A DNA stretch of 25,867 nucleotides, from positions 212,831 through 238,697 of the forward strand of contig CAJNUA010000035.1 in the NCBI GenBank assembly GCA_905330235.1. The letters run 5' to 3'. A model generated the notes under the pieces. That model was not told the DNA's origin and ran no database searches. It worked only from the letters and a program-made list of their open reading frames with translations. Positions 501 to 23,719 of the stretch are shown piece by piece. This DNA comes from Rotaria sp. Its lineage: Eukaryota. Every line of letters starts with the position of its first letter. The first letter of the stretch is position 1. The translations under genes and the position numbers were made by a program.

Positions 501-2111
501 CATACCCCTGTTAAAGTGGCTTACTTTCACTGTAAACTTTAATACTTTATTAAAGTGTTTTTAAAGTTAATGCATCACTCCTAATTCGTATTTGTTTTTA
601 TACCATCAACCATTATGTTGACATTTGGATATGCAACTGTACAAAATGTGAGAAAATTACTTTGTCCAATTGTATCGACGATTGGTTCACATAGAACAGG
701 AATGACAATGAAAAAGATTGACCGATAATTGATTCAAATGTCAATTGTTCAAATTATTCTATTAACGCTACTCAACATCTAATTGACTGTTTAACGTCTC
801 TACTTGACCTCGGCATTAAATGTTCAAAAAAGTTTATTAAGATCTACAATCGAAAATTTTTGTTTTCAGCTATTTTACCTTCTGAGCTTTATGATTTTTG
901 GAATGCCATTTTATATTTACACGTTAATCGGAACAGTTTTTAGAAATGATTGTATGAATTGAGTTCGATCCGTTTATCGAAAAGTGAAAATTGCAGCATT
1001 TTAAACATTAAAGAGTGATTGTATTCATAATTCTTTTGTGAAACACGCTCGTTAATAAATGTGGAAGTGTATATAGCAAGAGTCTTCGTTGGCGATTCAA
1101 TCATCTACAGTGTGTTTCACATTATAATCCCGCGTGAATTGCGCTGAAAACTTTTTCACTATAGTCATTACTGTAAGTGTGATGTGAAAGTTGGTCTTGT
1201 TACTAAATCTTGTAAACTTTAATTGATAAAAATTCCATCAAAGAAAAATAAACATACAATCTTCTGTTATTGTACTTAGTGTTCTACACTTCTAAAATCT
1301 GAACGAGCGTTCAACATTTTATAAGTTATTATTAGTGATTGTATAACGTAAGATTCCTATTGTAAGGGCATATGAAAGCATACGAATATCTTACTATAGG
1401 GTGTACAGTATGACTTTTTTTTCTCCTTTTACACCCAAACCCGTACTCACACCCATTTGTAGAAGCAAAGAAATCGGCTTCTTTTTATGCTAGTATTGGT
1501 CGAGAGATCAACTCAAAAATGATGTGAATGTTATCGAAAAATAAATCACATTCACACCCTCGAATAGTGAATAGACTTATGGTTTAATCAAGAAAAAACT
1601 AGCTTTTTCTGTCATGTTCTCCTGCTTATGCTAAAGAATGAAATACACAATCTATTTTTATAAATACTGCCTAATGACCTAATGTTATATTGATAAACAC
1701 GAAGTATTCGAATCAGTACTTTTGACTTGTAGAAAAAGAACAAAAGCCTTAAAAAAATGTACACATTCACGCAACACAAACTCGAAATGCCCTTTGCTCA
1801 ATTCATTATACAGAATGAAGAATATTACATGTAAATAAGCAACTGACAAAATAAAATATGCCATCATACAAAAACTAATTCATAGCAGCAATCGAAATCC
1901 CTGGGACATCTTTATTATGCTCGATACAACTTTATTCTTGTGTTGAGTGTGCGGTAAAGTCTTGTAATCTGTATTTCAGTAATAGTAATAATCGAGAATA
2001 GCGTTAATGATTTTGATCAAAATCTCTTTATTTTAGGTGAAGAATAAATAATGTTGAAAAGTTTCACGATTAGAATAATAAAAAAGAATAAATGTCGTTC
2101 GGAATCATTTC

Positions 2112-2239
2112 TTAATTATTGCCACGGTCGGCACCGATAAGAATACGCCGAATAAACATGTTCCACGATGGAACGTTCAGTTCTAATTGTCTACAATATA
2201 TACTATTACGTTGGCATGCTAATTGATAGAATTTGATCG
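2112..2239 (-). CDS. VWA5A: VWA5A-like C-terminal domain protein, putative terminal exon (…AIKFYQLACQRNSIYCRQLELNVPSWNMFIRRILIGADRGNN*); TAA stop at 2112-2114
   Basis: This is the only acceptor I found (gacaaag|CG at 2240/2239) that keeps phase 1 from the upstream exon and gives an open frame to the TAA. Its pyrimidine tract is weak. An alternative acceptor, gctaag|GTT at 2291, is phase 0 and does not fit the upstream exon. Weak similarity to the VWA5A C-terminus (KAAITFLK…). Confidence 0.3.
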
Positions 2240-2354
2240 CTTTGTCAATTTGTTCGCTCATGTTAGTAGGTAAATAGTTGCAAAGACGAACCTTAGCAAG
2301 AGATAGACATTAGAGTAGGGTAAATGAAAAGATTGAACAAAAAAGAACGACTCA

Positions 2355-2483
2355 CTTTGATTTGTTCACTGTTAAATAAAAAGTCGAACGTATTTTGTTG
2401 TGAAGCTTCCGTTTGAAGAACGAGCCAAAGGAGAATGACACCCGTACCAATCAAACACAGAATGTCGTTACGTATGTTTACAG
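2355..2483 (-). CDS. VWA5A: VWA5A-like C-terminal domain protein, internal exon (AVNIRNDILCLIGTGVILLWLVLQTEASQQNTFDFLFNSEQIK)
   Basis: Acceptor ttgttag|CT ends at 2484 and the consensus donor AAAG|gtgagt is at 2354-2353. The exon enters and leaves in phase 1. The frame matches ORF 2293..2490. I remember it as similar to the VWA5A C-terminus (…WATILAVIWL…EWELLERK…). Confidence 0.65.
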
Positions 2484-2539
2484 CTAACAAAATTAAAGCT
2501 CGTGTCTTTGTACGTTTACAAGAAATTATTCGATCTTAC

Positions 2540-2648
2540 CGAGTGAATTAAAACCTTGTTCGTATAAATAGCGTTCAAGGCCATTGAAAGTATCAAGATT
2601 GATGTGAAGTACATCAGCTAAATCTTTATTCAACGTAAATGAGCCGTC
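2540..2648 (-). CDS. VWA5A: VWA5A-like C-terminal domain protein, internal exon (DGSFTLNKDLADVLHINLDTFNGLERYLYEQGFNSLG)
   Basis: Acceptor atctag|GAC and donor CTCG|gtaaga at 2539-2534. It enters in phase 0 and leaves in phase 1. The peptide aligns to the VWA5A motif NANGSWDLNEDLAKILGMSLEEI. Confidence 0.7.
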
Positions 2649-2708
2649 CTAGATTCGAATCGAATGAAAAAACAATAAATAACTAATGAAGTTTCGTTAT
2701 GATTCTAC

Positions 2709-2810
2709 CTGGGATTGAAGTTTAATAAGTTCTTCAATCATTGTTTTTGTTGATCGAATATCTTTCAGTTTACTGAGAAGTGGAGCATCAACATTTTGAC
2801 CTGAATTCAT
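2709..2810 (-). CDS. VWA5A: VWA5A-like C-terminal domain protein, first or internal exon (MNSGQNVDAPLLSKLKDIRSTKTMIEELIKLQSQ)
   Basis: ATG at 2810-2808 with an in-frame TAA three codons upstream; donor CAG|gtagaa at 2708. An in-frame phase-1 acceptor tcag|GT also exists at 2801/2800, so the exon could instead be internal (2709..2800) and spliced to upstream exons. Aligns to VWA5A …ENHLVQLIYHQNANGS…. Confidence 0.6.
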
Positions 2811-3050
2811 ATAGAGTTACTATTGCAGTATATCTCACAAACCATAACAAGAGATAAATTACCGAATGAGGTAATAAAGTCACTGCAAAAGTTGTGTGTT
2901 AAATTTTCAGTTTGACCATCAAGCTGACAAAGGACAAAAAATGAACAATCGAACTATGAGAAGACAATATAATACGAACCATATACAATGCATCACTAGG
3001 CGTGCGATCATAAACTACAAAATAAAAACAATTAAATATCATTTACCCTT

Positions 3051-3133
3051 TTAACACTGACTAGATTTAGCTGCAAAATCTGCATCGCTCTCTACATTTT
3101 GAATATGCCGTTCAATTTCATCTTTTGTGAATC
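3051..3133 (-). CDS. Hsp70-family (divergent/degenerate) gene, last exon (RFTKDEIERHIQNVESDADFAAKSSQC*)
   Basis: Acceptor tatttag|GA ends at 3134 and the TAA stop is at 3051-3053. Aligns to the Hsp70 motif GRLSKEEIERMV at the end of SBD-beta. The protein stops where the alpha-helical lid would begin. Confidence 0.7.
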
Positions 3134-3191
3134 CTAAATACATTTCAATGGTATATAATTACGATATCAAACATCGAAGTAATTATCGTAC

Positions 3192-3363
3192 TTTTCTGAT
3201 TACTGGGATCAATAGTACATGAAGCTTTGGCACCAGAACGTGCTTCCTCGGCGTCGACACGAAGTATACCGTTGGCATCGATATCCATGCAAATAGAAAT
3301 TTCGAGAGTCTGAGCAGCAAAATTGCTTGTTAGGCCAGAAAGACTGAACTCGCCCAAAAATTT
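3192..3363 (-). CDS. Hsp70-family gene, exon 5 ([57 protein letters not shown])
   Basis: Acceptor ctattatag|AAA and donor AAAA|gtacg. The match to Hsp70 SBD-beta ([36 protein letters not shown]…ITITNDKG) is unambiguous. Same frame as ORF 3145..3357. Confidence 0.85.
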
Positions 3364-3416
3364 CTATAATAGGGAAAGCTATCAAATAACATTTATATAT
3401 GTAGAACACTACACAC

Positions 3417-3663
3417 ATTGTATTTTGTCAGCCTATGTTCGCCTTCAAATATGCGAATGGTAGCTGTTTTCTGATAGGCATAAGCATTTGTGAATAATGG
3501 GCAAAGTTGAGATTTTGTTGGAATGGTTGTATTACGACGAATGAGTGTATGCATGCAACCATGAATATCTTCAATACCTAGGCCAAGTGGGCAGACACCA
3601 AAGAGCAGTAGATCGCAGAAAGATATATCAGACATTGGAATATCTCTCATTCTTGATTCAGAG
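3417..3663 (-). CDS. Hsp70-family gene, exon 4 (…[43 protein letters not shown]…[14 protein letters not shown])
   Basis: Donor AAT|gtgtgt at 3416. The acceptor is either aatttag|C (exon starts 3663) or caag|A (starts 3651). Matches Hsp70 [34 protein letters not shown]…VYEGERAMTKDN. Same frame as ORF 3393..3650. Confidence 0.8.
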
Positions 3664-3763
3664 CTAAATTTTTAGTTTATTCTTATTTGAAAAGTGATAT
3701 CAATATAGAATGATGATTAGTAATTAATCGTCGCATGCCTGTATCAAATCTTTCACAACTTAC

Positions 3764-3855
3764 ATTAATTTCATTTCTTTTCCGTAACGCCGCTTGTAAC
3801 TTGATCTTGTATTTTCCGGTACGGAGTCTAGCACACTGTCGTCATAGAATTGCTT
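3764..3855 (-). CDS. Hsp70-family gene, putative exon 3 (KQFYDDSVLDSVPENTRSSYKRRYGKEMKL)
   Basis: Acceptor cttctag|AAG with an in-frame TAG immediately upstream. Strong donor AAT|gtaagt leaves phase 2, which is what exon 4's acceptor requires. No recognisable Hsp70 motif. Confidence 0.4.
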
Positions 3856-3908
3856 CTAGAAGTGAACAAAATTTCCAAACCAAAAAGCATTTATGTTAAT
3901 GTACGCAC

Positions 3909-4036
3909 TGAGTAGACAGTAAAATCCGTTGCGGATATTTTTCTCAGCGTACGATCACGTGAGCTTCGAGATTCACGCATAGAATTCTTAGTGTGACCAC
4001 GTTCATCACCGCGTGGCGAGTCATGTAACCTTGTTT
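3909..4036 (-). CDS. Hsp70-family gene, putative exon 2 (Arg/Ser-rich: ETRLHDSPRGDERGHTKNSMRESRSSRDRTLRKISATDFTVYS)
   Basis: Acceptor tacatag|AA is compatible with the phase-1 end of exon 1. Donor TCA|gtgcgt is phase 0 and matches exon 3. The frame is open, but there is no homology support. Confidence 0.35.
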
Positions 4037-4093
4037 CTATGTACATTTTTCGTTCTCCAAAATTATCTAGGAATTAATATGATTTTAACTTAC

Positions 4094-4358
4094 CCATACT
4101 AATGGTCGACATACGTTGTGGTGCTGCAGGAGCCTGCATATAACTGCTACTATCTTGTGATCCAAACGACGCCATATCTGTTGACAGTGATATTGTTGAG
4201 CGTGATGTTGGTGGTGGCGGTGGTGGCGGTGGTGGGGGAGGAGCAGTAAAACCAAATAGAGAATTATTAGCAGTATAGGTATAGGAATTGTATCGTGATG
4301 ACAAGTCAACACCTAGAACGAACATAAACTTAGAAGGTAACACACCTGACATGTACAA
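4094..4358 (-). CDS. Hsp70-family gene, exon 1 (MYMSGVLPSKFMFVLGVDLSSRYNSYTYTANNSLFGFTAPPPPPPPPPPPTSRS…MSTISMG)
   Basis: ATG at 4358 and donor ATGG|gtaagt at 4093. GVDLSSRYNSYTY weakly resembles the Hsp70 phosphate-1 motif GIDLGTTYSCVGV. An 11-residue poly-Pro run is encoded by (GGN)n at about 4205-4245. Same frame as ORF 4074..4358. Confidence 0.5.
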
Positions 4359-6807
4359 CTGACAGTGAACGATTGAGGATAACGTTCTACAACAGACAAA
4401 GTTCTTATCATTGTTCTTTCTGCTTTAGAAAAAAATTAAGGAAAACTGTAGATGATATCGATTGGAAATGATAAATGTAATTGCTACTATTCTGAGATGA
4501 CATTGACTATCCAAATAGCAACCTTTCTATAGAATAGTCCGGTATCAGGTTTATAATAAAGATAAATTTACGGCAGTGGTCTAAATTTTAATTTCTCTAA
4601 CATTTGGTTAACAGGAATCGAATGGTTCACATTGTTGTTCCCGGTTTATGGAAAGCAAGCTAAAAACTAACTCATCAGTCGATGAATAAAGTTTCATTAA
4701 ATGTGAAAATATCAATCGAAGGTTCAAGTGAAAATTGGACCACAATGAATTCTACCACCGTCATAAAAGCAATAATGACGTGCTATAATGTTTTTATCGA
4801 TGCATCATTATTTGTTATTGATATCGATCATAAAGTCAAGTTTTTTCTGGAGCTCTAGCAGAACGAAAAGTGTCTTGAAAATATTTTGCATAACTTTTCG
4901 AAATCCGATCGAATGGAAATTGAACTGTGAGATTAAAAGTATGAAACTTTTTAACGTAAAAATTTGTATTTTTGATATTTTTCATAATCTTCTCACTGTG
5001 ATTGAGTATATAACTGCTAATTTTCATGCTTCAAACTGTCCTCTACAACAAAGGACTTTTGGTAAGGCATTAATACAAACTACGGTGCTTATCTTCCAAC
5101 TTGCTAAGTTTTTTGAAAAATCACTGTAACATTCCTATTCAAATTGAGATTATCGACTATTCTCTATCTAACAGTATTGATCCTAGGTCATGTCGGAAGA
5201 GCCAATGTCATCTTCCGGTCTGTGTGTCTTCACTTCAAAAGAAGCTAATAAATTCTACCAAACCTGTTGAAGATAACAATCATACTTTGTTGCAGTACAA
5301 TAAGCAGTTCGACTTCTGATGATATCGCTAGCATTTTTTTTCGAGTTTTTTGATCTAACAGGATAGAACAGAATGGGTTTTATGTATCACAACGCAATGT
5401 AGTATTTTATAGTTTGAACTCTTAAAAAATCTGAAACTTTCCACAAATGTTAACTAGATAGTTACCTATTTATAGACAATAAACGAGAGTAGTATGAGAC
5501 GGGACTATACATTTCATTTTAAAAGATTTTTTCCCATCAATATTGGTGACAATTTTGTCACAACAGTCGCTAAAATAGTACAGATTACATCCATTGTCGA
5601 TGTCATGGGCTTGATGGCTAAGCATCGAATTCAAACTTCAGAGTCTAACGGAATCTCACTAAGACACATTGAGAGGCGTTACTTCTCATTTGAGCTGTAT
5701 AGATGAATATCGGCGTCTATTGGTCGCACACTACATAGTGTTGGTTGAAAACTATTTTTATAAAACTACAGAGATTATATGCTAGATGATCGGTATAAGT
5801 AGTCATTCTTATGAGAAACCTGTTTAATCTCTTATTTTACGCTTCACAAATTAAGTTTCTTGCATTGATCTTCTTTGATAATTTCATTTATGAAACGATT
5901 AATTATAGCGAATATATTAAAAATATCTGTCATCTACTTCGTTCATCGTGAAAATTATGATCAATGAACAATTCATTAACAATGTATTCCAGTGTGAATG
6001 TGGATATCAGTACGAATCGTAGAAGAAGAGACTCATACCCACACATTTGAACTGTTGAAATTTATACAGTGATACTATTTAGCAAGTTGACGTTTTCAGT
6101 GCCAAAACTCTAATTATTGATATATAATTTGAATGATAGCTTTAGCCACCATCTTTGCTCGTGTTGTCAGCATTCCATAGGGTATATCTCTTCTTGATAC
6201 CATTTGTAACTGTTGAGAAAAAGTTTTTCTTGTACAAAAAAGAAGGTTTTTCTGAGGCTTTTAAGGTGTACAGTGTAACAGGCATATCTGTCTGACTTTG
6301 TAATTGATGAACGATTGGAATTTTACTGTTTACAACGTTTCGCCTTTTGCGGTTATTGCTCAACCAAATTTCACAAATAATTTACTGAGTACGACTTATG
6401 TATGTTGTTTGAATTTTTGAATGAAACATTCAACTACGAATTTCGACTAATGACAGAAGTAACCAATTAAATTAACCTATGCGATACTGAAAATGATACT
6501 CTGACAGTCAAAAGGTGCAATAAAATAGGAAAATGCATACATTTTGATTTTATTGATTGTCACTCAAAGTAGTCTCAAGATCTTAAAGGCAAGCAAACAT
6601 GTTTTACGAAAAATAAATGTGTGTTAGTTATGGCTGTGCTTTAATTATCATCAAGACAATAAACAAGGGCAAAACTATGAAAAAAGAATTGTCGACTTCT
6701 GATTGTGTAGTAAAATCCTATTATATTCAATAGATTCAAATGCAGATCGACTTTAATTCAAGGAAAGGAGTAGTATAGATACAAATAGGCAAAAATTCAA
6801 ATCTTAC

Positions 6808-12024: not shown

Positions 12025-15000
12025 GCTGTAAGTATTTTTTCGGTTAAGTTAAATATGAACTAAATCAAGAAGTTTTCCCATTCGATTTATCATGCTAGCT
12101 CAGAGAGCTAGTTTTGAAAAAGAAATCCTGTCACTAAAGTCAATTTTTCTTTTCAAGAGAAAAAGAATTATTTTCTATCCAGAAATGTACTGAAGTCTCT
12201 TATTTTCGTACACGCATATCGAGTATTTTTAATAATTTAAGTTAATTTTTTTAGTTAGCTTATTTTGTTTTTAAATAAATGCGGTCGTTTTCTAGAAGAC
12301 TTTCAGTTTCTCGTTAAAGATAATTTTGAATGAAGTTCAGCTTTTTTTCCAAAATGTTACTAGCACTGCTCTATAGGTTGATAATTACAGCAACATACAT
12401 TGTTCCTTGAATACAATTCAAAGATAAATAAAGTTTTTCTTTATTAGTGCTTTCCGCAATTGCTCATTTGAAGAATGTCATAGGTTCTTCGACGTTTCCT
12501 ACCTCACTTTTTTGTTCTTCTTTTCACTCACTAAAAGCGAGAACTTTCGTCTCGTCATAATTTGTCAGCTTGATTTCCGTACCAAGGACAAGCAAAACTA
12601 TTTAACAATGTCGTCCGTTGTAGTGTTTCTTCAAACTTAAAACTTGTCATCAGTATAAAAACATGTTAAAGTAAAAATGGAAATTCTGTAGGAATGCAAG
12701 AATGACCTCTTCAGTTTAATATTATCCTTAATTGTATATATTTCGTAGAGAAAAATTTACTTGATTTTAGTGGAGATGTTTTGTGCATTTTGAAACCAAC
12801 AATAAGCCGACAATGACTTAATATGAACATTTCCAAGACTCTTTTACTAAGGGAGGCGAATCCTTACTGAAATTGATGTTTCCAGAACTGATGGAAATAA
12901 TCAAAAATGTTTGAGCTTTTTTTGCTATACAATCTTTCTCTCTCGGATGACTTCTAACAACTACGAAATACACGCCAATATCGATTCAATAACGTGCTAG
13001 CCGTAAAGAAACGAGATATTTCTGCAATTGTGAACTGTGACCACCTTATACATTCCAATAGTACTTATAAACTTATTGTCGCATATATTCATTTCTCGAT
13101 TTTCATTCGTTTGCTCCGTACAGCTAAAGTAGCATCAGCAAACCGTGAATGTTTCCAAAATGAATTCAGGTATCAGAATTCTTTTACAAAAAATCGCTTA
13201 AAAACGAAAAAGTGTACATAATACCTTCGAAATTCGTGCATCTCATACGCTTGTCAGAACACTACAACATGTCCAGTTCGAACTTTAAGAATGTATTTGC
13301 ATCTAGATTTACATATTGATAGTTCTGAACGGATCGATTACAACCAGCGTTGTTACCTATTCTGCTTTTTTTATTTGTTCTGAGCGTTTAGATTTCATTG
13401 CTTTTATAATTTTTAGCAATACTGTTAGATTCTACTAACTCATCTGCTCGAAAATGTCGGAATAATTCCTATTAATATTGAAATATGTTATATCTTTATT
13501 TGTCTCAAGGAATGAGTTGAACTAGTAATGCTGCTTAAACTCTGAAAATCGCATTTCATTGATTGATTTATTTCTGGTTTACCTCAACGTTCCAGCATTC
13601 GACCAGATACTCTGAAAAGACAACAGATATATAGCGCTTACTAATCAAAAATAGTTCGATTTCATTCATATGAAATAGTTTTCAAAGAGCTGTGTTTTTC
13701 AGATATTCTAATTTCGTATGAATCTCTTGTTTGTCCTATAATTTCATAAATTTTCTTTTACACATTCTAAATGAGATTGATTGGGTTTAACCGATGATGT
13801 GATCACTACCAAGACTACTGCTAAATTAACTACATCTACCTAGGTGATATTTTCATATCATTACTGATCGTTGAGTAAAAATCCCAACCCTCTTTTTGTT
13901 TATGTCTAAATATATTATAATGAAAAAACTTAATGTTAGAAATTGAGATTTAGTCATTGAGAATATATTTTGGTATCAATAAATACTTGAAGAAAGATTA
14001 TTAATTAAAACATGCTTCCTGCCTGGTAAAAGTAGAATTTCAAATTTTTTCTATTTTTTCCAAGTCATTCTCATCTTTTTGACACTAAAATTTGCAACAC
14101 TATTTTCGACTAAAGAGCTAGTCTTATCATGTCTCATGAAGCTCATCAACAACATCGTTAGTACGGGTATGCATGGGGAATACAAATTGAGATTAGTCAC
14201 AGGACCGAACTTTTTTTAGACAAATGCTAGACATATGGAACTGTATTTTACTTACTTGGGTAAATATTAAAAAAATTGTTGAAATTTTTCGAATACTTGT
14301 ACAGAAGAAGTTATAGTCATATATGTACGTATGTGATCGATGAGTGTCATTCATATGAATGTGATGCATTCAATTTTCTGTATAAAAAACACGCACGATC
14401 AGACATTGATTTTCGCACAATTATTGGGGTTCAAACCTTTTGTGTGATCGTGCACTTTTCTTCAGTTTTCAACATGAGAAAGGATGATTAATATTTACTA
14501 TTTTCTTCAAATCGATGACAACGATTGATAGTTATGACTAATTTCACGAAAAGTTTTACTTTCTGCCTTTCTTGCCACTTGAACGATGCTAGAAATTTGA
14601 ATTCGAAAGTTTAGTTTTTAAAGCGATTTAAACGAATCCAATTTTATTCAAAAGCGAACAATGTGATTTCTATGCTAGAAATCATTATAATGCGTCAAAC
14701 ATACGAATAATTACACCATGTGGTTAAAAATGATCCAAAAACCGTGAGGAGCCATGAGAACTCAATGAATACCTCCAGTAATATGATTAAGAGTAGAGAA
14801 TTGATTTCTAATGATTTCTTGTGATTTTCTTTCAATTCTAAGCATTTCCAATAACTCTCATTGTGTCGTGGTGAACTAATAAAAAACTGATTTTGGGTAA
14901 TAGAAATCACGAGAAATCAGAAACATTATTAGAAATCGAAGAAACCATGAAATAAGTTTATACGCGTTTCGTTTTATCAAACTTTTCTTGTGATAATCAC

Positions 15001-15230: not shown

Positions 15231-16204
15231 AGCGAATATTTATCACTACAGTTGTAAATACAAAGATTATTGGTTTTAGATACGATTCTTATATATGGAT
15301 ATGTCGTTCAAGAAAAATAATTCCAGTTATCATTTTCCAAGCACCACTGATGCAAAAGAACGATGGTTTAAATAAATAACTAAGATGCTCGAAACTCAAA
15401 CCTTTCAAAACATCTGATATTTTTACAATTTATAAATCATTGGATAGAAATGAACGACTTGTTTCGAGATATCAGTGTTGTAGCCATGATAGTGAACACA
15501 GAGAGTAAAACGCATAGAGAATATTGAGTATTGAAAAATTGAGTACTTTTTTAAATGATGCTAAGAGAATTAACCTCCTTAATTTATATACTCTCTAAAA
15601 AATTCGACTAGAATATTCATTAGTTAGCATGAAAAATCAAATATACAAAAAAAAACACACTTTTTATATTGTTGACACATAACTTTCTTCAAAACTATGT
15701 TGACCAAGAGAAGCGAATAAAGTTTGGACGGGTTTCACTTAAGAAAACAATATTTTAGGTTAAGAGGAATCATTTTTCATTTTATTTCTTAATTTTCGAA
15801 GAAAAAATGACTTTTGTTTTCAATACCATCAACAAAATTTTTAAAGAATGATCTTCTCTTTGTAGAATTTTCACAAGAATTTGTTTCGAAATAAAATGAA
15901 TAAGATATTCAAAATTTGCGTAGAAAGCCACATGAAACAGCATGTTGTTTTATTGCAGGCATGTTTTTTATGATTTATGTACTTCGTAAATTTATTCTGC
16001 ATATTGTATTCGTTTTATTTGGACACAAATTCCTAATGAAAAAAGTCTCTAAGTTGAGAGACTTTTTAAAGAATTTTATTACTGATGTTGAAAAAAGTGG
16101 ATTTCTTAGCGAAAAGTTAGAATAAATACAAACACATATTTCACATCATTTTCAACTGACTCAAAGCTAAACTAAAGTATAACAATGTGCCACACTTCTT
16201 AACT

Positions 16205-18560
16205 TAGAAAGTTAGATATTTTTTCGACTAAGTTACATATGCACAATATCAAGACGAAGTTTTTCCATTCGATTTATCATGTGATCTCGAGACGTTTTTT
16301 ATGTAAAAAGAAGTGAAGAAAGTCATTTACAAAATTTGATTTTCTTTTCTATGACGAATATTAGTTGTTCTCTATAAAGAACTGCACTGAAGTTACCTCT
16401 TTCAAAATACTTATATCATCTATTTCTATTGATTTAAATCGTCTTTTTGTAGGCAGCCTGCTAATTTTTTAATATTTATAGCCATTTTCTGGAAGACTAT
16501 CAAGCTTTTGTTCAAGATGATCTTGAACGAAGCTCAGTCTTTTTTCAAACTATTGAATAGTGTTCCTGAAATACAATTAAGAGATAAATAAAGTTTTTCT
16601 TTATTAGTGCTTTCAGCAATTGTTGCTTAAAAATTCATTTGAATCTCTTTTTATAGAAACATAAGTTTTCGTTTGAAGAATGTCATAGGTTCTTCGAGGT
16701 TTCATACTACAGTTAACTATGTCATCCGTTGGAGCGTTTCTTCAAACTTAAAACTTGTCATCAGTATAAGAACATGTTAAAATAAAAATGAAAATTCTGT
16801 AGGAATGCAAGAATGACCTCTTCAGTTTAATATTATCCTTAATTGTATATATTTCGTAGAGAAAAATTTACTTGATTTTAGAGGAGATGTTTTGTGCATT
16901 TTGAAGCCAACGATAAGTCGACAATGACTTAATATGAACCTTTCCAAGATTCTTTTACCAAAGAAGGCGAATCCTTACTGAAATCACTTTTTCGAGAACT
17001 TGTGCAAATAATCAAGAATTTCTGAGCTTTTCTTTGCTAAACAATCTTTCTCTCTCGGATGACTCATAACAAGTACGAAATACACGCCAATATCGATTCA
17101 ATAATGTGCTAGCCCTAAAGAAACGAGATATTGGTGAAGTTGTGAACTGTGACCACCTTATACATTCCAATAGTACTTATAAACTTATTGTCGCATATAT
17201 TCATTTCTTGATTTTCATTTGTTTGCTCCGTACAGCTAAAGTAGCATCAACAAATCGTGAATGTTTCCAAAATGAATTCAGCTATCAGAATTCTTTAAAA
17301 AAATCGCTTATACACGAAAAAAGAGTATGTAATACCCTCGAGTTTCATGCATCTCATACAGCTGTCAGAACACTACAACATGTCCAGTCCGAACTTTGAG
17401 AATGTATTTGCGTCTAGATTTACATATTGATAGTCCTGAATGGATCGATTACAACCAGCGTTGTCACCTATTCTGCTTTTTTTATTTGTTCTGAGCGTTT
17501 AGATTTCACTGCTTTTATAATTTTTAGCAATACTGTTAGATTCTACGTACTGCTAAATTAACTACATCTACCTAGGTGATATTTTCATATCATTGCTGAT
17601 CTTTGAGTAAAAATCCCAACTCTCTTTTTGTTTATGTCTAAATACATTATAATAGGAAAACTCAATGTTAGTAATTGAGATTTAGTCATTGAGAGTATCT
17701 TTTATTACCAATAAATACTTGAAGAAAGATTATTAATTAAAATATGCTTCCTGCTTGGTGAAAATAAAATTTCAAAAGTTTTCTATTTTTTCCAAGTCAT
17801 TCTCATCTTTTTGACACTAAAATTTGCAACACTATTTTCGACTAAAGAGCTAGTCTTATCATGTCTCATGAAGCTCATCAACAATATCGTTAGTACGGAT
17901 ATGCATGGGGAATACAAATTGGGATTATTCATGGTATCGAACTTTTTTTAGACAAATGCTAGACATCTGGAACCGTTTTTTACTTGTTTGGGTAAATGTT
18001 AAAAAAAATTGTTGAAATTTTTCGAATATTTGTACAGGAGAAACTAGGGCCATATATATATGATATATGAGTCTCATTCATATGAATGAGATACATTCAA
18101 TTTTCTTTTAAAAGAACATGCATGGTCAGATATTGATTTTCTCACAATTATTGAAGTCCAAAACTTGTGTGTGATCGTGCGTTTTTCTTTAGTTTTCAAA
18201 ATGAGAAAGGATTTATCATACGTCAAGAATAAGAATATTTACTCTAAGCAGTTAAAAACTGTAGAATACTCTCAGAAGTTAGTAAAACTCATTAAATATG
18301 TTTGATTTTATCAAAATCAGCTCGTGATGTTTGCTACCGATAATAAAAGTTGCATAACTTACCAGATGCCGAATAGAAGGAAGTGGCTATGTTAATATCG
18401 TCCCAGTCGAAACCCACATTAACGTCTTCAATATGTGATTCTAACTGTTGTTGTAATAAGCTCTCTTCTGAATCAAGTTCCTCGTCTAAAAACAAACACA
18501 GATAAGTTTTTTCTCTTCAACGTTATTGTATTCTCTCATTCACGGGCATTGGTATGGATG
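16205..18560. repeat. Tandem segmental duplication, copy B (about 2.35 kb; includes acidic exon copy 3)
   Basis: See copy A. An approximately 1 kb unique spacer (15230-16205) separates the two copies. Confidence 0.8.
18363..18485 (-). CDS. Acidic cassette-type exon, copy 3 (123 nt, phase 1-1: EELDSEESLLQQQLESHIEDVNVGFDWDDINIATSFYSASG)
   Basis: Acceptor ttgtttttag|AC and donor TCTG|gtaagt. Only one frame is open. Confidence 0.55.
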
Positions 18561-20280
18561 TGGATGATTGCCTTCATTTCATCCGCACATCTACATCCTC
18601 AGTGTCGATTTTTTGTCTTATTTTTTAATTAGTAAATGATTTATCATGACCGAATTCAGGAAAATACGCACTACGTCAACATTCATATATCATAACTTAA
18701 ATTTTATATTTCTTTTGAATGTACACCATTTCGAATTTAAATATTCTGGTTATGAAAGTTAGACTATAGAGTTCTTTCACAATATTCAAGCAATTCCATT
18801 TAATATCATTTCATGAAAACTCTAAAATGAGTTCTCACTTTCTTTCGAGTTTCGAAAATGCAATACAATGACAGAGCACATGTAGTGAGTTGTTCAATTC
18901 CACTTTCAGTCGTTTAAAGTGTCAGATTTTCATAAACTCAACCAGAAGTATGATAATTACGTGAAGTCATTGCCTATTGTGTTGAATTTGCATTTCATGC
19001 ACGGATTCATGCCAACACAAACTATATTCTTTTCAGTTCTGTATCTAGGGTTCATAAACTTCAAATACAAAGCCACTTAGTACTAATTCAGTTTTGTTAT
19101 CTTCGCGATTTGCTAGATCAATATGCAATTTGACGTGCTTGTTTTTTTTTTTATCTCAGATTATTGTCAAAGAACTACAATTTAGAATAATGAATTCATA
19201 AAGTTAAAAGCAGTTAGATTTGATCATAAGTCTTTTTGGGAAAATTTATGATGCCATGAGTATTTAAACATTAGATTTTTAAAAGTTTTTCTTAACCATT
19301 TCGATTTACTTCTTAGATTTCTTTTCGTAAATCAATTTCTTTCAACTGATCCATTTTTCATTGTTTATTTACTCTTATTATAAAAATTTTGTTAAAGTTT
19401 CAAAAACATATTTTGTCAGTAGAAACTTAACAACAACAGACTCGAAGTAAAATGATCATTATTCGAGACTAGACTAATGATAAAATTTGTTTTTACTTCA
19501 ATAACTGCTAGGAATATCTACTAAAATTTGAATTGTGTGCTCATAAATAATAAATGATACTAAATATCTTGAAAAAAAAAGAAACAACCTAATTCAACTA
19601 TTCTGTGGTTTCCTACTTAGTTAATTTGTTTAACTGAATGAATAAAATGGTTTCTTCATGATTGTTTCATAGATGACATGCTACACCGATATCGATAGTG
19701 GAGTTGACAACATAGTACTTCTGTGCATCTTATTCCAAAAGCAGTCGACTAAGTCTGTCAAAGATCTATATATGCCTCACGAATATGTTATGGAATTGTC
19801 ACGATTTTTCTTAGATCTATTGCGATTCACATGATACTAACAATTTGTTTTTTATTTTTTACATTGAATTCAAATGTTGCAAATTCATGCTAGATATCAG
19901 GCCCTCTCTCACTCTAATCGAATAGTGTTAAGAGTTATTCGATTGTTGTATGTGGTTGATTCTTTTGCAATTTTGCGAATCTAATCCAAAAATAAGCTCC
20001 GTTTTATTCTTAACTTCTAGATAAAAGACGAATTGGTCATGTCACAATAGAATGCTCACATCAAACGACACTTTTTGTTTTTTTAAATTTTACTATATAA
20101 CCAAGAAAGTTTCGACGAATATTGAGAGAAAAACCACCATTTAAGATTGAAAGATTGAAACGAAACTGCTCAAACGCTATGATATATACAAACCAAGGAA
20201 TTCAATTCTTTTGTCCGTCACTTTAAGAATGGACAGCATCTCTAAATTTTCATTTTGATCTAAATCATATGATCATCCTC

Positions 20281-20524: not shown

Positions 20525-20582
20525 CTATTTATTTTTTGAATATTAATGTATTTGAATATCTATTCTAGATTAACTAACATAC

Positions 20583-20891
20583 CATTTTTCATTTTATCTT
20601 CGAGTTCATTTGCTTTTTCGTGCTCGTTCAATGAATAACGATACGTATGAATAATAGCCATCATCGTATCAAATTTTGCATCACCACCAGCTTGATAGGA
20701 AATTTTTTCACAAAGTTTTTCAACATCAGCAACTGATTCGTTTTTGCTTTGAATCGATGCACTTTCGAGTGAAATACGTGCATCAATCAATTTTTGTTTC
20801 ATCGAAGCTAAATTTGATACATCACCATCCCATCCGATGTATGGTAACAGGTCAACATCTCGATCAAGCATAACATCAAGCAGACGAACAC
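20583..20891 (-). CDS. VWA5A: VWA5A-like gene, exon E (GVRLLDVMLDRDVDLLPYIGWDGDVSNLASMKQKLIDARISLESASIQSKNESVADVEKLCEKISYQAGGDAKFDTMMAIIHTYRYSLNEHEKANELEDKMKN)
   Basis: Acceptor tttctgttatag|GT and donor AATG|gtatgt. Frame matches ORF 20560..20871. Confidence 0.8.
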
Positions 20892-23444: not shown

Positions 23445-23719
23445 CTATTTCGATAAAAATCAGATTAGCAATTGCACGATTAGGCATGTTGCAAGATCGA
23501 AATCGACATAAGAGTCTCGGGCCTAGTTTTGTATCTAATATTGAATCTTGATTTTTATTTCTAGTGTCTTTATTCTAGTGTTTCACATCTATATTAACAG
23601 AGACTCGACTGAGACACAAAACTCGAGCCGCTCCGTCTTCGAACATGTTTATGTTCAAGTCTAGGACATATAAGTTGGATGATTTCGAATTTTTTCGTTA
23701 AAACGAAATTAAGCATCAC

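Follow-up and report, generated by a model that had tools for sequence, protein, structure and literature searches.

What kind of gene carries a piece of Hsp70 that has no ATPase domain attached to it? The question is raised by a locus on the minus strand of a 25.9-kb stretch of DNA from the bdelloid rotifer Rotaria sp. Silwood2 (hereafter the window, meaning the whole stretch that was analysed), which is AT-rich (GC about 32%) and has short introns. The original prediction saw here a degenerate Hsp70 gene in which the nucleotide-binding domain (NBD) had given way to Pro- and Arg/Ser-rich sequence, and which ended, as a client-binding-only protein, at the point where the helical lid would begin. 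Our analysis leads to a different reading, to which we assign a probability of about 0.6: positions 4312-2112 (minus strand) are the C-terminal module of a bdelloid gene of the PARP4 family. This module consists, in order, of a disordered Pro/Ser/Arg-rich linker, about 150 amino acids of Hsp70 (the interdomain linker, the beta-sandwich part of the substrate-binding domain, SBD-beta, and lid helix A), a spacer of about 60 amino acids, and the MINT / MVP-ID domain.

The first step in answering the question is to establish where the protein ends. The six exons originally proposed (4352-4094, 4036-3909, 3855-3764, 3663-3417, 3363-3192 and 3133-3051, all on the minus strand) do have GT-AG borders and an open frame of 326 amino acids, and the four junctions listed for them match those of the NCBI gene model P0001 (Rotaria sp. 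Silwood2), to which the product of the module is 99% identical. In the homology-supported model, however, the protein continues beyond their stop codon. A GT donor (a|GTCAGT, 3062/3061), also used by P0001, lies 8 nt before the TAA and opens six more in-frame exons, which are separated by introns of 47-64 nt with GT-AG borders throughout, are conserved at 5/5 paralogous loci that span them, and are each conserved in the paralogous proteins P0002-P0014. The TAA at 3053-3051, intronic in the homology-supported model, probably lies within an intron of the real transcript as well. That model has 12 exons between 4312 and 2112 with an open frame, GT-AG at all borders and introns of 47-100 nt; it stops at the TAA at 2114-2112, and an AATAAA follows about 80 nt downstream.

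These features bear directly on the possibility of a stand-alone degenerate Hsp70 of about 326 amino acids that ends at the TAA at 3051 and binds clients as a free protein with Pro/RS-rich sequence in place of its NBD. Its six-exon frame is open, its stop falls just after helix A and the window holds no NBD, all as such a protein would have it. Nevertheless, we consider it very improbable, given that the donor just before the stop leads into conserved in-frame exons that run on to MINT, that the NCBI model takes the same donor, that the start codon is not conserved, that the N-terminal exons match the PARP4-family linker rather than an NBD, and that paralogue models carry upstream exons of the same gene.

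The Hsp70 sequence itself lies in exons 4-6, as had been claimed. Exon 4 (3663-3417) encodes the interdomain linker and the first half of SBD-beta, including the residues of the peptide pocket, and is supported by the PF00012 profile, by alignments to PDB structures, by conservation in paralogues and by the ratio of nonsynonymous to synonymous change (dN/dS). Exon 5 (3363-3192) encodes the second half of SBD-beta (LGEFSLSGL...) and rests on the Hsp70 profile, PDB alignments and paralogues; for its donor, the longer choice made in the original prediction, which keeps 'SNQK', fits the paralogues better than that of NCBI. Exon 6 (3133-3062) encodes a remnant of lid helix A, FTKDEIERHIQNVESDADFAAKS, recognised in PDB alignments, and ends at the a|GTCAGT donor. 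When the proposed check with PF00012 was run, residues 176-317 of the product matched positions 382-518 of the 599 in the profile (E 7.7e-27), a part of about 150 amino acids that corresponds to the interdomain linker, SBD-beta and helix A. The best matches among solved structures are the substrate-binding domains of BiP, Hsc70 and DnaK (E about 1e-26), and identity to BiP and Hsc70 is about 45% over the interdomain linker, the eight-stranded SBD-beta and helix A. This Hsp70 match is far stronger than chance would produce. The interdomain linker, with the consensus DLLLLD for the family, aligns to DLVLLD of BiP. The window copy (3614-3597) reads DLLLFG and ends in Phe-Gly instead of the Leu-Asp of the family and of all Hsp70s; it also reads ISICMD for the family ISIRMD, with Cys in place of Arg, a change shared by P0132.

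Beyond this piece, no Hsp70 sequence was recovered. Twelve Hsp70 queries that include the NBD match only 3629-3157 in the entire window, in line with the claim that the NBD is missing, and of the lid only helix A aligns (to about model position 518-526), after which the spacer and then MINT follow. Because NBD and lid are absent, we do not regard the module as an Hsp70. The idea of an Hsp70 derivative survives in one respect, that of an SBD-beta without an ATPase domain or a lid beyond helix A; the stand-alone degenerate Hsp70 does not, and the sequences that flank the Hsp70 piece are those of PARP4 and not remnants of Hsp70. As to the donor, the domain scores 135.9 bits against BiP, about 127 against cytosolic Hsp70s, about 108-112 against DnaK and about 97-100 against mitochondrial Hsp70, and its diagnostic motifs are mixed, so that the piece appears to have been captured from a donor whose class is not settled by its best score, that of BiP.

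The predicted structure agrees with this assignment. An AlphaFold model of P0001, built from an alignment that included Hsp70s, has a predicted local distance difference test score (pLDDT) of 82-95 over SBD-beta and below 50 over residues 1-160. In the comparison with Hsp70 substrate-binding domains that had been suggested as a check, the model superposes on 6jpv_A with a root-mean-square deviation (rmsd) of 2.4 A over 136 columns, on 3dob_B with an rmsd of 3.0 A and on the lid-truncated BiP 7a4u with an rmsd of 3.7 A at 44% identity. An Hsp70-like fold is partly to be expected here, since Hsp70s were in the alignment.

What, then, is the domain at the C-terminus? By profile similarity, exons 9-12 (2800-2709, 2648-2540, 2483-2356 and 2291-2112, minus strand) encode the PARP4 MINT / MVP-ID domain, and an association with vaults is predicted. 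It is the paralogues that carry precomputed matches to PF26156 ('PARP4 MVP-ID C-terminal domain'), and a profile of the rotifer domain matches exactly one PDB sequence, residues 1574-1648 of human PARP4 (E 2.4e-4). In humans, MINT comprises residues 1562-1724 of PARP4 and has been seen by cryo-electron microscopy docked on repeats 3-5 of the major vault protein (MVP) at the inner wall of the vault, with S1614 and K1618 among the reported contacts with MVP (PMC12280208). The best conserved stretch of the rotifer domain, QGFNSLA, aligns with the human segment that holds these two residues. A word-indexed homologue search with the C-terminal domain returned Rotaria sequences only; a profile search carried out exhaustively extended the range to Adineta, Didymodactylos and vertebrate PARP4, including the C-termini of the killifish and emu proteins, but picked up no non-bdelloid invertebrate.

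Between helix A and MINT lie two small spacer exons. Exon 7 (3014-2980) encodes IYDRTPSDALYM, which is conserved and takes the form VYDRKPxDPLYM in paralogues, and exon 8 (2923-2863) encodes LDGQTENLTHNFCSDFITSF, which is conserved in paralogues and has GT-AG borders. Together they amount to 96 nt and can therefore be skipped with the frame kept. They are skipped in the NCBI models P0001 and P0013 and included in most paralogue models, and the skipping could be either alternative splicing or annotation noise.

The exons in front of the Hsp70 piece had been read as what replaced the NBD. We do find the 11 consecutive prolines and the Arg/Ser-rich exon, but exons 1-3 are homologous to the disordered linker of the PARP4 family, with further exons of it upstream at about 7.6-6.8 kb. 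Exon 1 (4312-4094) contains the proline run and a conserved motif, RSTISLSTDMASF, which is kept in Rotaria and Adineta proteins; exon 2 (4036-3909) is Arg/Ser-rich with the motif ESRSSRDRTLRKISATDFTVYS, is weakly conserved in paralogues and is predicted to be disordered; exon 3 (3855-3764) is part of P0001. Exons 2 and 3 have GT-AG borders. As a whole, exons 1-3 are predicted to be disordered and share short motifs with their relatives, such as RTISLSxEAASF. Exon 1 probably begins at the acceptor ttctag|GT (AG at 4314-4313), where paralogues keep intron-end DNA and no conserved ATG. Alternative starts are the ATG at 4352 of the original prediction and the ATG at 4325 of the NCBI model. The former is not conserved, and at the paralogous locus L003 (Rotaria sp. 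Silwood1) the corresponding position is immediately preceded by a stop in frame. The supposed ghost of the phosphate-binding motif GIDLGTTYS (GVDLSSRYNS) is not supported either: it straddles this probable acceptor, a strong one (4314/4312), paralogues read ELAASF or EAAASS at the same place, and the Hsp70 model does not align there. Pro/Gln-rich coding stretches further upstream (7618-6806, minus strand) are homologous to N-terminal parts of paralogue models that continue into the SBD-beta/MINT module. Between 4.4 and 20.4 kb we found scattered weak protein-level matches only.

At the far end of this interval the window carries part of a PARP4-family gene. Exons between 23444 and 20430 on the minus strand encode the last approximately 45 catalytic residues (23444-23310), VIT, VWA and the post-VWA region, and correspond to residues 554-1343 of P0190 of Adineta ricciae. 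VIT and VWA are recognised at 22942-22094 (E 2.8e-20 and 5e-5, respectively), and this region is 37-44% identical to PARP4 of molluscs, cnidarians, placozoans and vertebrates, which are its nearest non-bdelloid relatives. Given the MINT domain and this VIT/VWA context, we place the module in the PARP4 family. Furthermore, the window interval is colinear at the protein level with L003 throughout, where a PARP-VIT-VWA gene, a 347-aa gene without a recognised domain and a gene annotated as an Hsp70 fragment follow one another on one strand.

The arrangement is not peculiar to one locus. Linker, SBD-beta and MINT recur in this order at every paralogous locus examined, and exons 4-12 are found in the same order at L003, L006, L007 (in two copies) and L010. 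Family members identified by profile search and cluster look-up come from Rotaria species, A. ricciae and Didymodactylos carnosus, and a homologue search added A. steineri; all of these are bdelloids. Several are long single models: P0190 (A. ricciae, 2063 aa) reads BRCT (weak)-PARP-VIT-VWA-...-HSP70 (1708-1842) followed by the MINT region, P0183 (D. carnosus, 2098 aa) reads PARP-VIT-VWA-...-HSP70 (1776-1923), and P0193 (R. magnacalcarata) reads VWA-...-HSP70. We considered whether the combination might be a misassembly or an annotation chimera, and rejected this because the exon order recurs at loci and in assemblies that are independent of one another, and in three genera.

Outside the bdelloids the Hsp70 piece was not encountered. 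Direct scans did not find it in emu PARP4 (1631 aa) or killifish PARP4, and PF00012 occurs in none of about 90 non-bdelloid PARP4s retrieved with the VIT-VWA region, from molluscs, one coral, Trichoplax and many vertebrates, according to precomputed domain lists for proteins of up to about 1,225 aa. This suggests that, among the PARP4s checked, the piece is confined to those of bdelloids. It would have been captured from a eukaryotic Hsp70 of cytosolic or ER type before Didymodactylos, Adineta and Rotaria diverged, and would since have been kept under purifying selection in many paralogues.

Is the captured piece maintained? Per-exon codon alignments were made against five paralogous loci, and changed and unchanged synonymous and nonsynonymous sites were compared by the Fisher test. 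dN/dS is 0.18-0.34 for SBD-beta (Fisher p 1e-5 to 1e-12), as the original prediction had anticipated for these exons, and 0.18-0.32 for MINT; the linker exons 1-3 give 0.45-1.3, on poor alignments. SBD-beta is thus under purifying selection. In a comparison with the conspecific locus L001 (99% identical) over window positions 1200-5300, 0 of 23 mismatches fall in the 1575 nt of exons (p about 1e-5), 2 lie in introns and 21 in the flanks; for the SBD-beta exons alone this test is weak (p about 0.05). Neither of the two conspecific assemblies contains a frame-disrupting variant. The view that the locus is maintained and not a dead pseudogene is therefore upheld by an intact frame, canonical splice sites at 12/12 exons, dN/dS below 1 and the absence of exon differences within the species. 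A recently inactivated or decaying paralogue whose frame happens to be still unbroken might nonetheless look similar, and DLLLFG for DLLLLD and ISICMD for ISIRMD, both at otherwise conserved sites, as well as the disrupted or duplicated look of the upstream part of the locus, would suit it. Since the low dN/dS also holds in comparisons that include the window lineage, and all 12 exons are intact and free of conspecific mismatches, we regard decay of this copy as quite unlikely.

Based on these observations, we propose the following model for the role of the module. MINT would place the parts fused to it inside the vault; proteins fused N-terminally to MINT are known to be carried into the vault lumen (PMC12280208). 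There, an SBD-beta without lid or ATPase domain would form an ATP-independent, fast-exchange peptide-binding site tethered to the lumen, which would bind hydrophobic stretches in extended form, from cargo or from unfolded proteins, or would connect one PARP4 molecule to another by way of their retained LLLL linkers. Because MINT points to the inside of the vault and the residues of the hydrophobic pocket are retained, we believe that SBD-beta most likely serves as an ATP-independent peptide-binding module in the vault lumen.

The pocket was judged from positions I401, M404, F426, A429, Q433, V436 and I438 of DnaK, which we take to be its peptide-contact positions as described by Zhu et al. 1996. 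In the alignment to DnaK these pocket and arch positions read I401=I, M404=I, F426=F, A429=A, Q433=Q, V436=A and I438=I, and they are conserved across the family.

A more far-reaching idea is that bdelloid vaults have a built-in client site of the Hsp70 type, in which every protein of the PARP4 family would put a lidless SBD-beta on the inner wall and the vault would be an ATP-independent holding compartment for proteins that are unfolded or specifically chosen. We think this fairly unlikely. If it were so, the compartment could serve while the animals dry out and rehydrate, or once they have been irradiated, at times of MVP and PARP induction: bdelloid MVP genes are expressed, and radiation and desiccation induce them along with many PARPs (PMC10809525). 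Paralogues that consist solely of SBD-beta and MINT would then be dedicated cargo adaptors.

Several points weigh against our reading, some against the gene assignment and some against peptide binding, and we consider them together. With regard to the gene, VWA and the module lie 16 kb apart, with intervening sequence that is poorly conserved and in part duplicated, and the VIT-VWA exons and the module need not belong to the same transcript in the window copy. No BRCT or catalytic exons were detected in the 2.4 kb between 23466 and 25867. The window copy may thus be truncated or split; it may be 5'-truncated, or a long intron may leave the window, in which case the exons could lie beyond it. 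In addition, the gene models have been predicted, and not all annotators divide these loci alike. Two side observations concern the same interval. PARP4 homology sets in abruptly at 23466, at the protein level as well as in the DNA comparison with copy B of L003. A segmental duplication of about 2.3 kb (12029-14485 vs 16213-18212), with pieces of 79-92% identity, two long ones among them at 89-92%, is surrounded by weaker protein-level repeats; it may account for the gap of 16 kb between VWA and module here against about 8 kb at L003.

The module could therefore be a separate, shorter linker/SBD-beta/MINT protein that lacks VIT, VWA and PARP domains and would bind peptides in the vault with no enzyme attached, with the upstream VIT-VWA sequence forming a separate or decaying gene, and we regard this as a serious contender, if somewhat short of even odds. 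NCBI annotates separate genes both here and at L003; solo modules exist at L006, where the module lies between genes for G-protein-coupled receptors, and at L007, where two modules stand in tandem; and the 16-kb gap with its internal duplication and the missing catalytic exons would fit as well. However, full-length genes are predicted as single models in A. ricciae, D. carnosus and R. magnacalcarata, L003 and the window are colinear over the whole interval, and no conserved start codon for a short protein was identified, all of which favours the C-terminal module of a PARP4-family gene.

With regard to peptide binding, loop L3,4 carries a family-specific YAY in place of SDN/EDN, and the family has a 10-residue sequence where Hsp70s have their universal 11-residue motif (PAPRG). 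Either change could alter or abolish client binding, and peptide binding by SBD-beta is something that we infer from conserved residues only. AlphaFold confidence on SBD-beta is low when the alignment is restricted to the family, and moderate (67-88) on MINT under the same conditions. SBD-beta is partly degenerate in D. carnosus P0144 and R. socialis P0131, which indicates that the domain is not kept in every copy: P0144 runs from about the middle of SBD-beta straight into MINT, and the first half of the domain in P0131 is unrecognisable.

Accordingly, SBD-beta might no longer bind clients and might act instead as a structural spacer, or as a surface for self-association or for contact with MVP, for example by taking up the LLLL linker of a neighbour as lid-truncated BiP does in its oligomers. 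We consider this doubtful, but by no means negligible. It would explain why an Hsp70 interdomain linker is retained without an NBD, it agrees with YAY in loop L3,4 and with the loss of PAPRG, and it is in keeping with the structural match to the lid-truncated oligomeric BiP 7a4u. In contrast, in all three genera the residues of pocket and arch are either kept or changed conservatively, as continued peptide binding predicts, and if molecules associated with one another through the linker, that too would amount to peptide binding. A peptide-binding SBD-beta thus continues to be the role that we favour.

Compared with known systems, the family shares with PARP4/VPARP the order of BRCT-PARP-VIT-VWA, a long disordered Pro-rich linker and a C-terminal MINT / MVP-ID domain. 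It differs in that the bdelloid genes add an Hsp70 segment of about 150 amino acids some 60 residues before MINT, in that the family is multi-copy with some copies that are solo SBD-beta/MINT modules, and, for the window copy, in that catalytic and BRCT exons were not detected. With the canonical Hsp70s (BiP/HSPA5, Hsc70/HSPA8 and DnaK) the bdelloid domain has in common the predicted fold and the pocket residues; in contrast to them, it has no NBD, no lid helices B-E and no EEVD or KDEL tail, it is embedded in another protein, and its 11-residue motif and L3,4 loop are changed. The closest parallels are engineered. Lidless SBD constructs, such as lid-truncated BiP (7a4u) and SBD-beta fragments of DnaK, bind peptides with fast exchange and can bind the linker of another molecule, and MINT/INT fusions load cargo into recombinant vaults. 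The bdelloid module resembles a natural version of such SBD and MINT constructs. Whereas those are artificial, the bdelloid combination is a natural gene family found across the sampled genera, with its binding activity predicted.

We found no description of an Hsp70 domain in PARP4 or in a bdelloid vault PARP in the searchable literature. The function of vaults, the role of PARP4 inside them and the selection of natural cargo are still unclear, and a natural fusion of a chaperone domain to a vault-docking domain, kept since before the sampled genera diverged and amplified into many paralogues, is of interest for this reason. The fusion of SBD-beta to MINT yields a hypothesis that can be tested directly: in at least one group of animals, vaults would serve to bind polypeptides that are unfolded or hydrophobic. 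This may have a bearing on the stress tolerance of bdelloids. The fusion also provides a natural example of an Hsp70 SBD-beta that works, or at least persists, without ATPase domain and lid, which is relevant to the mechanism of Hsp70 as well as to the engineering of vault cargo loading. There is a practical consequence for annotation too, which routinely breaks up these loci and labels them wrongly as Hsp70 fragments.

A few further features of the family were noted. P0200 (also P0209 and P0214) and the gene at 1-8551 of L008 contain a calmodulin-like EF-hand region, located at the C-terminal end in P0200. Either this region is genuinely fused into the linker, or annotation has joined it on from an adjacent or nested gene; we found no EF-hand sequence in the window. 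In P0007 (R. sordida), MINT is followed by additional C-terminal sequence (about residues 350-509) that has no relationship to other family members and is probably a merge with the next gene. A repeated coding-like unit, made up of an acidic stretch and 'SYxSxSGKLCNFY', occurs in the window at 18468-18343 and 11907-11776, with a degenerate copy at 15071-14940; one of the window copies has a stop codon. It is repeated at L003 too (about 4418-4549, 5032-5130, 19982-20074 and 20530-20655), and is probably a repeated exon of the PARP4 linker. Finally, L003 contains, on one contig, two tandem genes of the PARP4 family (1-2164 and 15974-17672), each with 81-85% DNA identity to the VIT/VWA region of the window; the family has expanded by local duplication.

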